A stretch of 31,654 nucleotides of DNA from a virus, in the UHGV virus genome UHGV-1544975; one strand, 5' to 3'. This document shows, piece by piece, positions 17,304 through 25,738 of the stretch; the stretch's first letter is position 1, and each line of letters opens with the position of its first letter. The notes under the pieces were generated by a model that saw only the letters and a program-made list of their open reading frames with translations, searched no databases and was not told where the DNA came from. Made by a program: the position numbers and the translations under genes.

Positions 17304-17380
17304 GTGGCATTAGCTCAGTTGGACAGAGCAACCGCCTTCTAAGCGGTTGGTCGCAGGTTCGAATCCTGCATGCCACGCCA
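17304..17380 (+). tRNA. tRNA-Arg (anticodon UCU), 77 nt including 3' CCA
   Basis: Folded by hand: perfect 7-bp acceptor stem GTGGCAT/ATGCCAC, D-stem GCTC/GAGC, anticodon stem ACCGC/GCGGT, loop CTTCTAA, T-arm GCAGG-TTCGAAT-CCTGC, discriminator G, CCA. Confidence 0.9.
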
Positions 17381-21844: not shown

Positions 21845-22216
21845 CTACTCCCCCTTGATGCCAGCGGCGCTAAGCTTGGTATTCACATCACCTTCAAAAA
21901 TAGGCAGTACACCAATTGCAGCGGCCCAGTTTTTAGCTAACTCAGGGTCAGATGTCTCGTCGGTGTAGTCTGATGCCCGCCACCCAATCAGTCGTTTCTG
22001 ACCAGGAATGTCAGAGTTTCGCTTCTCCGTTGCTTGCTCTAGAGCATTAAGAAGTGTACGTATTTCATGCTGCTGAGTAGAGATGCTTGAGTCTTTGGCT
22101 TCCAGCTCATCAAGCAGCGCCAGCACATCCCGAGTGGGGACCATAAAGTTCGGCATGAAGTTATCTTTTGCCTTTTCTGCTGTTAGGCGCAGCGCCTGTT
22201 TGTCGATGTTGCTCAT
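21845..22216 (-). CDS. Hypothetical coiled-coil protein (123 aa), possibly Ead/Ea22-like
   Basis: Position and composition only. Confidence 0.35.
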   Translation of the reverse strand: MSNIDKQALRLTAEKAKDNFMPNFMVPTRDVLALLDELEAKDSSISTQQHEIRTLLNALEQATEKRNSDIPGQKRLIGWRASDYTDETSDPELAKNWAAAIGVLPIFEGDVNTKLSAAGIKGE

Positions 22217-22866
22217 TGCGCGTCCCCCTTGCGAATCTGGGCGGCGATGTCTTCGAGTACACCATCAGCGAACGAGCGATCGAAATCGCCTTCCGGCGCA
22301 TCATCCATAAACTCTGTGGAGGTCAGTATCATTCGTGCGATGTCCGCAGCGTTCTTCGCTGTGTCTTCGATAAACCCAGCCTCCCATGCAGCCAGCATTC
22401 GGTTGGCAACAAAGTGAGCGCCTTCCTTGTGGGCTTGCGCCCGCACTTCAGCCAGGAAAGCATCGGTGGCTGGAATGGGCTTTTGTGGTGATATAGCAAT
22501 GCGAATTGTCTCAAGGTCTGGATCTGTTTCCGCTGCTGGCACCTTGATATAACCCACCTGCACCCCATTCATGATGAACCTGCGACGGTCATCACATATC
22601 GCCTTTAGCCCCGCATTCTCCGCCGCCAGCGCCGAAAACTTCTCGTGTGCCAACTTAACAGCTGCATCAGCCTGCTTAATTGACTCAATCGCTTTCTGTT
22701 GGTCTTCGGCCAGCGCATTAGCACGCACCAGTTGCACTTCCAGTTGCGTTGCCAAATCGCTGATCAGCTTTGCCACACTGCGCATATCAACGGCACCACA
22801 TTCTGCTTTCAGTTCCGAAGCCATCTCATGCCCGGCGGAAACTAACCATTTGATATTACCGTCCAT
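22213..22866 (-). CDS. Hypothetical protein (217 aa), Ala-rich coiled-coil N-terminal half
   Basis: ORF with 4-nt overlap to the next gene. Confidence 0.4.
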   Translation of the reverse strand: MDGNIKWLVSAGHEMASELKAECGAVDMRSVAKLISDLATQLEVQLVRANALAEDQQKAIESIKQADAAVKLAHEKFSALAAENAGLKAICDDRRRFIMNGVQVGYIKVPAAETDPDLETIRIAISPQKPIPATDAFLAEVRAQAHKEGAHFVANRMLAAWEAGFIEDTAKNAADIARMILTSTEFMDDAPEGDFDRSFADGVLEDIAAQIRKGDAQ

Positions 22867-22927
22867 CTTTACCCTCGCTTATCCACATAACTTATTGATT
22901 ACATTGATAACTAAAAAGATCGTCGAT

Positions 22928-23272
22928 TCAGAACTCTTCGATGTTCCAGCCACCACCTGCTTTCTTTGGCTTAACCGTTACCCCGATGATTCGGAACGGA
23001 TACTGATCTGCGGCGACTTTGGTTTTCACTCTGGCGTCATCGGTCCAGAAACCTTTCACTTCGTGTAGTTCCATCTCGCCGGTGGCGAGCATCACAGCAA
23101 AATCGGGCGTATAGAACGTGTTGTCAGCTAACCGCAGCTTGATACCCTCGAATCGATACCAGGCGATTTCCCCTGCACGTTTACGCAGCTCAAGGTGCTG
23201 GCAATACGCAGATTCTGTTTTGTTCATCTGGCCTGTTTTGAGTCGACCAAGAGCCTGTATCTGTTTTCTCAT
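22928..23272 (-). CDS. Small protein with PD-(D/E)xK nuclease-like motif (DUF1064-like?)
   Basis: Motif ...YTPDFAV...ELHEVKG consistent with a D...(D/E)xK core. Confidence 0.35.
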   Translation of the reverse strand: MRKQIQALGRLKTGQMNKTESAYCQHLELRKRAGEIAWYRFEGIKLRLADNTFYTPDFAVMLATGEMELHEVKGFWTDDARVKTKVAADQYPFRIIGVTVKPKKAGGGWNIEEF

Positions 23273-23389: not shown

Positions 23390-24190
23390 TTACTTGATAA
23401 ATCCTGCCGCCTTTCCCCGCCTGTATTCCTCCATCAGCCACTGCGCCGGTGTTATTCCCCCAAGGGTGGCGGCGTTAGGCATGCACCCGAAACTTCGCCC
23501 TGGTGGATGGTAAACGTCTCTCCCTGTGTCCGGAGGCGTACTCATGGGTTCTGGCTTTGCCTGTATGCTGATCACCGGATCGGGTATCTGCTGTCCGGAA
23601 GCCACCTTTTTCGCCCAATCATCGAGCAGCCTGCGCGCGTGTTTCTCAACCTCTATCTCGCTAAGCTGGCGCTGATACATTGCACGGCGGGTATCACATA
23701 CGACCCAGTACATAACCGGATGCCGCCACGGGAATCTTTCGGGACCACCAGGATATAAACTTTTTTCCTTGCTGTACCGGTGAAACTCCGTCATCACATC
23801 GTCAATGGTGACGCCAAGAACCATCTTGCTGTCTTTGCACCACTTGATGAATTGCCCTGGCGACGGCCAGAACGGAGATTCACTGGCGCGGGCGTGGCGC
23901 ATACCAGCAGAAACCTGTTCACGGGTTCGGATCCCCCCTTCGGCAAACGCAGCAATCCACTGCTGTTTTGCAGCAACTTCCTGCTCTGGCGTCTTCAGGT
24001 TGGTTACCACTGCCGCCGGAAACAGTTGTTTCAGCTGTTTGAAAAGGGCATCAACAAGCCTCTCTGCTGACATGTTCACCACGTTGTCATTGTTGGTGTA
24101 CTGATGCTCATAACCTGACATGCGAGAAAGGGCTTCTCCGTCACGGTTTTGTATCGCGGTAAAAACGTTGTTCACAAGAAATCCTCCCAT
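23390..24190 (-). CDS. Replication protein P-like (helicase loader), lambda P family
   Basis: Segments FPAAVVTNLK...QQWIAAFAEGGIRTREQVSAGMRHARA...PFWPSPGQFIKWCKD align with remembered lambda P FPASLANRD...RRQWVLAFRENGITTMEQVNAGMRVARR...PFLPSPGQFVAWCRE. Confidence 0.75.
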   Translation of the reverse strand: MGGFLVNNVFTAIQNRDGEALSRMSGYEHQYTNNDNVVNMSAERLVDALFKQLKQLFPAAVVTNLKTPEQEVAAKQQWIAAFAEGGIRTREQVSAGMRHARASESPFWPSPGQFIKWCKDSKMVLGVTIDDVMTEFHRYSKEKSLYPGGPERFPWRHPVMYWVVCDTRRAMYQRQLSEIEVEKHARRLLDDWAKKVASGQQIPDPVISIQAKPEPMSTPPDTGRDVYHPPGRSFGCMPNAATLGGITPAQWLMEEYRRGKAAGFIK

Positions 24191-24987
24191 GCTTCAGGGC
24201 TGTTCCAGTGCGGAACGTTGTTATCAGGTAATGTTGATTGCTTCTGTCTGCTAATCTGCAGCCGCCTTGCCAGCTTCTGCTCCCACTGTGCCTGATGGTA
24301 TGCCTTACCCTCAGCCATCCAGTAAATTCTGAACTCTGCAAGTTCCTGTGCCGTTGGCAGACTGTCCAGGTAGATCCCCTGCAAGGAGCTTTTCCGAAGA
24401 AAGTCATCTGATGGCTGCCATTGTTCATGCATGACAAATTTGCCTAATTGCCCTGGCCCACCAGGAGGAACAAAGTTATTCATCACGGCGTTGTTTGCGC
24501 CGGGGTCATGAGGCACAGAATCCCCGTTTTTTGTCCTGCTCTCCCTCTCTTGGTTAAATGACTGGTTATATGACTGGTTCTGGATCCCGTTTTTGGGATC
24601 ATTCAACATCCCGTTTTTGGGATCATTCAACATCCCGTTTTTGGGTATATTCCCGTTTTCGGTAACATTACCGTTTTCGGGTTCATTGCCCCCCTCCCGG
24701 TTGCCTTTAATGTTCCCGTTTTTGGTTATATTAAGAGAGAAAACCCGCACTCTTTTCGTCGCTCCCTTTCTCTCTCCGGTATCTGAAATAAGCCCCATTT
24801 TCATGAGCGATATAAGCCCGGCCTGCACGGTTTTTTTATTCAGGCAAGTGTCTTTAACGAGGCGTTCTATGCTGGGGTAGCAGAGGTTATATTCATCGGC
24901 TCTGTCAGCCATCGAGAGCAGTATGAGCTTTAATGACGAGCTACCTGGATCTGTCTCCCAGGCCCAATCTGTTGCATGTCTGCTCAT
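24172..24987 (-). CDS. Replication initiator, lambda O-like (271 aa), with embedded iterons
   Basis: N-terminal HTH-like region; central Asn/Gly/Pro-rich repeats encoded by tandem DNA repeats; immediately upstream of the P-like gene. Confidence 0.65.
   Translation of the reverse strand: MSRHATDWAWETDPGSSSLKLILLSMADRADEYNLCYPSIERLVKDTCLNKKTVQAGLISLMKMGLISDTGERKGATKRVRVFSLNITKNGNIKGNREGGNEPENGNVTENGNIPKNGMLNDPKNGMLNDPKNGIQNQSYNQSFNQERESRTKNGDSVPHDPGANNAVMNNFVPPGGPGQLGKFVMHEQWQPSDDFLRKSSLQGIYLDSLPTAQELAEFRIYWMAEGKAYHQAQWEQKLARRLQISRQKQSTLPDNNVPHWNSPEAWEDFL
24585..24732. repeat. Iteron array (putative replication origin) inside the O-like gene
   Basis: TCCCGTTTTTGGGATCATTCAACA occurs twice in tandem, followed by degenerate copies (TCCCGTTTTTGGGTATAT, TCCCGTTTTCGGTAACATTA, CCGTTTTCGGGTTCATTGCC, TTCCCGTTTTTGGTTATATT). 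Confidence 0.65.
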
Positions 24988-25353: not shown

Positions 25354-25584
25354 TCATGAGTAGAAGAAGTATGCCAGTTCTGCTTTTGAGCGCAGCCATT
25401 GTCTTGTTTTACAGGCTTTAAAAAGCCCATTCATCAATACTTTACCTGGCATTTTGCGCTTACCTGTTAAGTGAGTCTGGATATAGTGACTCGTCGTTCC
25501 GGCTTCCTGTGCGAAGGCTTCACGCTCATCCGGAGTAAGTGCAAGCCAGTGCTTTTTGAAATCGAAATGTCCGTTATCGCTCAT
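25354..25584 (-). CDS. Cro-like small HTH regulator (76 aa)
   Basis: First gene of the minus-strand replication operon, divergent from the repressor-like gene; helix-turn-helix-like segment. Confidence 0.45.
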   Translation of the reverse strand: MSDNGHFDFKKHWLALTPDEREAFAQEAGTTSHYIQTHLTGKRKMPGKVLMNGLFKACKTRQWLRSKAELAYFFYS

Positions 25585-25738
25585 AGCTATTGCCTGATAT
25601 TTATTTCAGATAATAAATATTCACCCATAAGGTAACAAAAATCAAGGATAGTTACCTATGGGGTGCATTTACCTGTTGGGTAATATTGCTTTAAATTGAA
25701 TCATCTACTGATTCATATATGAGGCGATTTTCCAGAAA
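25585..25738. promoter_or_regulatory. Immunity switch intergenic region with divergent promoters and operators
   Basis: AT-rich inverted repeat ATATTTATT-N6-AATAAATAT (25597..25620); half-sites GGTAAC (25631..25636) and GTTACC (25651..25656); palindrome TTTACC-TGTTG-GGTAAT (25668..25684); possible minus-strand promoter TTGTTA-17-TATTAT. Confidence 0.55.

Follow-up and report, generated by a model that had tools for sequence, protein, structure and literature searches.

A candidate iteron-type replication origin inside the initiator gene of phiV10-like Escherichia coli phages

When the middle of a replication initiator gene consists of short tandem repeats, the question arises whether the repeats serve the protein that is read from them or the DNA itself. 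Such a gene is found in the virus genome UHGV-1544975, of which we analyzed a stretch of 31,654 nucleotides (the window), most of which shares 98% identity with phiV10-like podoviruses of the genus Uetakevirus. A minus-strand open reading frame at 24172..24987 runs through an array of repeated units and reads them as ...ITKNGNIKGNREGGNEPENGNVTENGNIPKNGMLNDPKNGMLNDPKNGIQNQSYNQSFNQ..., and a first-pass annotation, made from the letters alone, had proposed that these units are the iterons of a phage lambda-like origin embedded in an "O-like" initiator gene. Here, we examine the array, its homologs, and the sequences next to it. Based on this analysis, the array is almost certainly an element that functions as DNA, and it is probably the initiator-bound iteron array of the replication origin of phiV10-like (Uetakevirus) E. 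coli phages and prophages, located inside the gene of its own initiator.

The repeat array and the protein that it interrupts

The array, at 24584-24728, is built of six dyad-symmetric units of 16 bp, which in their perfect form read ATCCC-AAAAAC-GGGAT on the coding (minus) strand (Table 1). The first-pass annotation had described two exact 24-bp repeats followed by at least four degenerate copies, and this description was borne out by Tandem Repeats Finder, which reports 24584-24645 (period 24, 2.6 copies, 100% match) and 24633-24687 (period 18, 3.1 copies, 78% match). The exact tandem duplication of TCCCGTTTTTGGGATCATTCAACA accounts for 24585-24632 (two copies, plus strand), and a repeat search identifies six in-register copies at spacings of 24, 24, 18, 18, and 45 bp, with degenerate copies reaching 24736. 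The dyad arms pair perfectly in two units, at four of five positions in one, and partially in the other three. The core TCCCGTTTTTGG (12 nt, up to 2 mismatches) is present 10 times in the window versus 2.6 ± 1.6 expected, a number reached by none of 100 shuffled sequences, and seven of the 10 matches are clustered on one strand within ∼200 nt (24522-24725). Besides these array repeats, we found no family of direct repeats with three or more copies in the window.

The protein sequence places these units in a linker. As had been read from the letters, the repeats translate to an Asn/Gly/Pro-rich segment, and the six units sit between an HTH_36 domain (PF13730, amino acids 18-67, E value 1.8e-10) and a DnaT DNA-binding domain (PF17948, amino acids 184-252, E value 1.1e-15). 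The whole protein matches phrog_1032, a family of replication initiation proteins, with an E value of 1.2e-108. An AlphaFold2 model of the N-terminal domain (mean pLDDT 86) has the topology H-H-H-H-beta-beta of a winged helix, and a Foldseek search with this model returned only generic winged-helix DNA binders, all with E values above 1e-3. The C-terminal domain matches solved structures of the C-terminal part of E. coli DnaT (4ou6, 4ou7, 6aep, 2ru8, and 9zbt) with E values of 1e-19 to 1e-21. The next gene encodes a P-like helicase loader (PF06992, E value 1.5e-56; phrog_109) with 31% identity to lambda P (E value 7e-36). With the array in the linker, units that are dyads and a P homolog as the next gene, the lambda-like arrangement of iterons within an initiator gene holds. 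The term "O-like" applies in part: the protein is a phage replication initiator of phrog_1032, but its domains are PF13730 and PF17948 and not the PF04492 domain of the lambda O family.

Some further features of the array sequence were recorded. Three GATC (Dam) sites fall within 42 bp (24583-24624) versus a window mean of one per 251 bp; they arise from TGATCCC, the arm sequence in iterons 5 and 6, and from a GGATCC following iteron 6, and their clustering may be a simple consequence of the arm sequence. Weak terminator-like hairpins at 24594-24637 on the plus strand arise where neighboring iteron arms pair (GGGAT...ATCCC) ahead of the T5 that belongs to the core. They were rejected as terminators, as they lie on the antisense strand and have three G-C pairs, and as all hits of this kind together number four versus 3.1 in shuffled sequences; they are probably incidental. 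An Rfam scan gave no match in the array region and only a tRNA elsewhere in the window, and a known (Rfam-curated) structured RNA is therefore unsupported.

Conservation of the repeats as DNA

The simplest alternative to an origin is a slippage-prone coding minisatellite, in which repeats of NDPKNGML would provide a flexible, low-complexity linker and the DNA would have no function. Several properties of the window and of its close relatives agree with this alternative: all seven copies in the window (the six units and a degenerate seventh) share one reading frame, their spacings are multiples of three, copy number varies between strains by whole units, and the cores show no extra constraint within the close clade. 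For the last point, we compared 45 distinct 816-nt genes. At low power, polymorphic sites are not depleted in the iteron cores (7 of 96 sites versus 76 of 816), nor are polymorphic third codon positions (5 of 30 in cores versus 37 of 212 elsewhere). Given the single frame in the window, the choice between DNA and peptide rests on homologs and not on the window alone. Codon usage within the array can be read in the window as well, where all four Pro codons are CCC (background 9%) and six of nine Gly codons are GGG (background 16%), counts that are partly non-independent owing to recent duplication; such use of the rare CCC and GGG codons throughout counts against the minisatellite.

A comparison of repeat number among relatives had been suggested as a check on the origin proposal. 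Among 80 near-identical relatives from IMG/VR, 77 have a complete gene, and all 77 carry the array with at least five copies (5-9 cores); none was found without it. The number of cores changes as entire units of 18 or 24 bp are gained or lost, as in BP9, which is without one 24-bp unit. A search with the full-length protein retrieved only near-identical length variants, proteins of 279, 287, 291, and 311 amino acids being the same gene with more units. A search with the N-terminal domain alone gave only short fragments, many of which end or are frameshifted inside the array, and no diversity. Polymorphism among the close relatives has two hot spots, one in the G-rich spacer that separates iteron 1 from iteron 2 (24688-24698, gene nt 289-299) and one just past the degenerate seventh unit (24510-24527, gene nt 460-477), while iterons 4 to 6 and the 12-bp repeats next to them (described below) are almost invariant.

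More distant homologs were sampled as 80 loci of the N-terminal domain from different species and four phage loci, which yielded 77 usable genes from hosts in the Gamma-, Alpha-, and Betaproteobacteria and Desulfovibrionaceae. At least four copies of a related 11-mer (..CCCAAAAACGG..) are present in 70 of the 77, starting ∼285 to 300 nt into the gene, with a mean of 5.4 copies versus 2.7 in codon-shuffled linkers; control segments taken from these genes mostly contain 1-3 and at most six. In 61 of these 70 genes, the motif occurs in more than one reading frame, at spacings of 17-18, 22, and 24 bp, and a single protein can read the one DNA word as PKNG, (T/S)QKR, or PKT(E/D/G). One DNA word that is kept in several frames and yields different peptides indicates that the constraint acts on the DNA, which is contrary to the minisatellite.

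The dyad arms point in the same direction. Across lineages, they change as pairs (ATCCC/GGGAT, GTCCC/GGGAC, CACCC/GGGTG, GTACC/GGTAC, and CCCCC/GGGGG), and in per-gene consensus sequences from 73 genes, the complementarity of the three outer arm positions, from outermost to innermost, is 0.81/0.73/0.48 versus 0.48/0.60/0.29 after permutation, with observed values reached in 0 of 5000 permutations for the outermost and innermost positions and 4 of 5000 for the middle one, statistics that ignore phylogeny in a set where many genes come from Acinetobacter.

We also aligned the window gene (E. coli) with its closest relatives in Superficieibacter, Phaseolibacter, and Providencia. Across the four genera, the best-conserved DNA of the gene is nt 340-442, which contains the last three iterons and the 12-bp repeats: the alignment shows no variation in 71% of its columns and in 56% of its third codon positions, and the latter figure is 67% in the last three iterons with their spacers. 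By comparison, 48% of columns and 13% of third positions are invariant in the folded N-terminal domain, and 12% of columns in the 120 nt after 442. This conservation is seen despite C-terminal halves that are unrelated in two of the four genes. Where an initiator has another N-terminal domain, its linker contains no repeats. Taken with the frames, the covarying arms, and the codons, these comparisons leave the minisatellite with hardly any credence, and the linker peptide, rich in Asn, Gly, Pro, and Lys, is for the most part a side effect of the DNA motif (CCC AAA AAC GGG reads as P-K-N-G).

What binds the units is suggested by exchanges of domains between phages. We propose to group phage initiators that combine an HTH_36 winged helix with in-gene iterons. 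An HTH_36 match together with an array (at least four CCC-A-rich-GGG dyad units within ∼100 codons) is found in the window gene, and the initiators of PPompW, GF-2, H20, and AP22 likewise have an HTH_36 match and arrays. Edwardsiella phage GF-2 (1501-2343) combines the HTH_36 domain and three exact 24-bp iterons (ATCCCAAAATTGGGAT) with a C-terminal region that is lambda-O-like by alignment only (GTKWGTSEDL..., DLTNTDWIYGV), and a P gene follows. Arrays are also present in Vibrio phage H20 and Acinetobacter phage AP22, in which the C-terminal parts are others and, in AP22, the next gene after the initiator encodes a DnaB-like helicase. Conversely, SPN1S and ZX5 keep the DnaT C-terminal domain with another N-terminal domain, and the array is absent. 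Through several independent exchanges, the repeats thus track the N-terminal domain and not the C-terminal domain or the loader; the array is inherited together with the winged helix of the initiator. Since the repeats track this domain, binding by the encoded winged helix is the simplest reading, and we infer from these sequences that the N-terminal domain of the initiator would be what binds the iterons.

A host factor or another phage protein might bind the repeats in place of the initiator itself, and the co-inheritance of repeats and N-terminal domain could partly reflect their physical adjacency. We consider this very unlikely. There is no DnaA box near the array, the arms differ between hosts and covary as dyads in the manner of a cognate, fast-evolving specificity pair, and the repeats persist with the N-terminal domain through several exchanges of C-terminal domain and loader yet are gone where only the N-terminal domain has been exchanged in otherwise near-identical phages such as ZX5. 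The genomes of ZX5 and HEMP4 follow the window at 97.5 to 98.4% identity as far as ∼23920, a position inside the P-like gene, and then diverge, encoding a different initiator (DnaT C-terminal domain, other N-terminal domain, no iteron array) and their own P gene; to judge by the alignment, this looks like a replication-module exchange with its junction inside P.

A second conserved element and comparison with known origins

Directly after unit 6 lie three tandem 12-mers, which are candidate repeats of an unwinding element. Tandem Repeats Finder reports them at 24551-24579 (period 12, 2.4 copies, 94% match), and phiV10 has one 12-mer unit more than the window. The first-pass annotation had noted ACTGGTT twice just upstream of the iterons as a short direct repeat. 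The duplication is real, but it is upstream on the plus strand and hence downstream in the direction of the gene, and it is not a stray repeat: it is part of the 12-bp tandem repeat and so of this second conserved element of the putative origin. Among the 45 close relatives, one of 36 sites in the 12-mers is polymorphic. Family-wide, two to four copies of RGAAYCnnYCA directly follow the last iteron, the spacing being 12 nt in 42 cases and 13 nt in 34. Of the 46 genes with two or more RAAYC hits in the first 70 nt beyond the array, 40 have these hits in more than one frame. The 12/13-mers are succeeded by an A-rich run, for instance AAAAATAAAAAA. The family-wide tract has an AT fraction of 0.63 to 0.67 versus 0.55 gene-wide and an A fraction of 0.40 to 0.46 versus 0.33. 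The 12/13-mers are retained with the N-terminal domain whatever C-terminal domain or loader is attached. In the window, the corresponding coding-strand tract has a purine fraction of 0.80 (in 30-nt windows) versus a gene mean of 0.58. A strong AT-rich unwinding element after the array was expected in the window, and only a weak tract was seen.

Besides the shared reading frame, the unremarkable polymorphism of the cores, and the neglect of phylogeny in the covariation statistics, all given above, several results weigh against an origin of this kind. In the window, the AT fraction of the tract after the array (0.57-0.63) is only mildly above the mean for the gene (0.51), and its duplex stability per 30-mer is -35.6 kcal/mol where the mean is -40.5. 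The least stable 30-mer of the gene is found instead at the other, 5' end of the array and takes in part of iteron 1. Nor do spacings of 18 and 24 bp between iterons amount to whole turns of the helix. Homology of the N-terminal domain to lambda O is undetectable (BLASTP E value 0.07; hhalign probability 7%).

The weakness of the AT-rich tract beside the array would fit a different role, in which the units do bind the initiator but act in regulation (of the gene itself, of copy number or by handcuffing, or to exclude related phages), with strand opening and helicase loading taking place at a separate origin in another part of the genome. Iterons have control roles in plasmids, and cloned lambda iterons together with oop silence the replication of incoming lambda (PMC3349717), which we count in favor of this role. 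Nevertheless, the window, which covers part of the phage genome, contains no other repeat cluster, and the conserved 12/13-mer and A-rich elements directly after the array, family-wide, are what one normally sees in an origin that has an unwinding element beside it. A purely regulatory array is, on balance, unlikely.

If the array is an origin, as we favor, replication could begin, by analogy with lambda, with dimers of the initiator binding the iterons through the N-terminal winged helix and assembling into a higher-order complex, whose strain would open the adjacent 12-mer and purine-rich segment. The DnaT-type C-terminal domain would then bind the exposed single strand and/or a complex of P and DnaB, the P-like protein delivering the host DnaB helicase. 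Slippage by unit lengths would alter iteron number between strains.

Comparison with lambda and P22 supports the layout. The lambda origin consists of four 18-bp dyad iterons and a 38-bp AT-rich tract inside O (PMC3349717); in the lambda record, the four iterons are annotated inside O at 39034-39118, within an origin layout of 39034-39160, and the P22 record has a rep_origin annotated inside gene 18. In both phages, the origin is in the middle of the initiator gene, where a linker joins an N-terminal, origin-binding domain to a C-terminal one, and the putative origin in the window has the corresponding position. Lambda and the window each have at least four direct repeats with an internal dyad and an A-rich center (ATCCCTCAAAACGAGGGA in lambda, ATCCCAAAAACGGGAT in the window), the lambda unit being ATCCCTC-N5-GAGGGA and that of the window ATCCC-N6-GGGAT. 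In both, a P-type helicase loader is the next gene. In lambda, a strand-asymmetric purine/A-rich tract follows the array (for the asymmetry, see PMC5043065); the tract in the window is only mildly AT-rich, but its purine content on the coding strand gives it this asymmetry. The 12/13-mers of the window and its family resemble short direct repeats that can be seen in the A-rich tract of lambda and in that of P22. The lambda iterons, too, lie in several frames (gene offsets 348, 368, 392, and 415), and they bind dimers of O (PMC5043065). In Stx phages, the iterons number six and the O protein is longer to match (PMC7466680), and as in these phages (933W and P27 among them), iteron number in the family of the window varies between relatives and lengthens the protein.

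The differences from lambda are equally plain. The units in the window are 16 bp (spacings 18 and 24) versus 18 to 19 bp in lambda-type origins, and number six or seven (5-9 in the relatives retrieved) versus four in lambda. The AT-rich tract is much weaker than the 38-bp tract of lambda, and the array is followed by the distinct set of three 12-mers, unlike in lambda. Lambda O and P22 gp18 are Phage_rep_O proteins (PF04492), whereas the initiator of the window is PF13730 plus PF17948 and shows no significant homology to either (BLASTP E values 0.07 and 0.29); by these searches, it is outside the lambda O family. The layout is the ordinary lambda-type in-gene arrangement, and what is new is a candidate origin in an initiator family with no detectable sequence relationship to lambda O.

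Plasmid iterons usually lie outside the rep gene. The iteron plasmids RK2, P1, F, R6K, and pPS10 share with the window an array of replicon-specific initiator sites (presumed in the case of the window) adjoining an unwinding element, and in both, a change in copy number of the iterons is expected to alter replication control. Unlike Rep_3-type plasmid iterons, the units in the window are dyad-symmetric, out of phase (18, 24, and 45 bp, where helical phase would be ∼22 bp), and inside the gene, and the initiator has no Pfam Rep_3 match. In plasmids, it is a monomer of the initiator that binds an iteron, and helical phasing of the iterons is usual (PMC5043065), while the dyad symmetry of the units here suggests binding of a dimer; IncX1 plasmid iterons are the subject of another study (PMC6118388). 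The unwinding elements of RK2 and oriC contain three or four 13-mer repeats (PMC5043065).

It is conceivable, although we hold this only tentatively, that HTH_36-type initiators of Proteobacteria share a three-part in-gene origin of dyad iterons, two to four 12/13-mers (RGAAYCnnYCA) that act as a specific element for strand capture or opening, and an A-run. In such an origin, the 12/13-mers may be more than DNA that is easy to melt and comparable to the 13-mers of oriC and RK2.

Two other families invite comparison. The staphylococcal RepA_N initiators (pSK41 and pTZ2162) have a winged-helix N-terminal domain and an iteron origin inside the repA coding sequence. Structures of RepA_N proteins (4pql and 4pt7) were among the fold matches of our N-terminal domain, with E values of 1e-2 and TM scores of ∼0.5 to 0.57, which is no better than unrelated winged-helix regulators; the initiator has no Pfam RepA_N match, and its hosts and partner proteins differ from those of RepA_N plasmids. 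Of DnaT, only the C-terminal part (residues 85-170 of the 9zbt chain) is matched, by amino acids 180-265; the N-terminal half of the initiator is an unrelated winged helix, and the gene lies in a phage replication module beside a P-type loader. With the match confined to the C-terminal domain, "primosomal protein I," the name in most database records, is a partial-domain annotation and does not denote orthology. In the literature that we searched, we found no published description of this origin, of the iteron sequence, of an origin of phiV10 or epsilon15, or of in-gene origins in this family.

Gene neighborhood, existing annotation, and implications

Upstream of the initiator gene are a cro-like gene (25354..25584) and a divergent gene for a repressor with two helix-turn-helix (HTH) domains, in the same gene order as in the phiV10 record. 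The promoter-like site listed in Table 1 has 9 of 12 hexamer matches, and the number of such hits equals the shuffle expectation. A single perfect match to the DnaA-box consensus occurs in the window, a number at chance level; this site (TTATCCACA, 22879-22887, plus strand) is 1.7 kb from the array, between open reading frames 22213-22866 and 22928-23272. A tRNA-Arg gene (anticodon TCT; Rfam 73 bits, also found by ARAGORN) is located at 17304-17380 on the plus strand, between the structural and early regions.

Table 1. Features of the putative origin and its surroundings in the window
Feature	Position	Strand	Remarks
Iteron 1 (degenerate)	24713..24728	-	TAACC AAAAAC GGGAA
Iteron 2 (degenerate)	24668..24683	-	AACCC GAAAAC GGTAA
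Iteron 3 (degenerate)	24650..24665	-	TTACC GAAAAC GGGAA
Iteron 4	24632..24647	-	TACCC AAAAAC GGGAT
Iteron 5	24608..24623	-	ATCCC AAAAAC GGGAT; perfect dyad arms
Iteron 6	24584..24599	-	ATCCC AAAAAC GGGAT; perfect dyad arms
Degenerate seventh iteron or half-site	24520-24537	-	AGGAC AAAAAAC GGGGAT; core match 24522-24533 with 2 mismatches
Three tandem 12-mers, candidate unwinding-element repeats	24546..24581	-	AGAACCAGTCAT / ATAACCAGTCAT / TTAACCAAGAGA; directly after unit 6
Purine-rich tract (coding strand)	24521..24555	-	AACCAAGAGAGGGAGAGCAGGACAAAAAACGGGGA; holds the degenerate seventh iteron
Initiator gene (open reading frame)	24172..24987	-	271 amino acids; N-terminal winged helix, repeat-encoded linker, DnaT-type C-terminal domain
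N-terminal domain, presumed iteron-binding winged helix-turn-helix	24733..24987	-	amino acids 1-85
DnaT-type C-terminal domain	24232..24438	-	amino acids 184-252; three-helix module binding single-stranded DNA; PF17948
Lambda-P-like helicase loader gene	23390..24190	-	overlaps the end of the initiator gene; PF06992, phrog_109
Promoter-like site	25610..25638	-	upstream of the cro-like gene, directed towards the initiator gene; consensus match only

Of 5426 complete E. coli genomes, 424 contain sequence that matches the initiator gene, and its location is nearly always chromosomal. Public labels for the gene include "primosomal protein I," "DnaT," "pyocin large subunit," and "DnaT-like ssDNA-binding domain-containing protein," and no origin feature is annotated at the gene in the phiV10 record or in the RefSeq/GenBank E. 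coli annotations that we inspected. Database proteins are often truncations of 57 to 158 amino acids or frameshifted translations of the iterons (for example, ...MNPKTVMLPKTGIYPKTG), and the array seems often to break assemblies or gene calls. Two large records carry the phiV10-type module: PP488543.1 ("Escherichia phage BP9"), a 138-kb record classified as a Vequintavirus with repressor, initiator, and P near its end (133.4-137.2 kb), and PP350014.1 ("phage PH444"), an unannotated record of 114.9 kb; chimeric assembly or prophage contamination is possible in both.

The array provides a concrete, testable candidate for the origin of phiV10/Uetakevirus-type prophages. It would explain why the initiator gene varies in length and is frequently truncated or frameshifted in assemblies, and it should be useful for annotating these genes, for work with phiV10-based vectors and reporter phages, and for interpreting variation in iteron number between strains. 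If the three-part organization proves true, iteron number (5-9 or more in E. coli prophages) would be a natural means of adjusting replication, or the incompatibility of prophages that reside in one host. On our reading of the array, the rule known from lambda, an origin inside the initiator gene and a linker peptide dictated by DNA, would extend to a second initiator family and to many genera.

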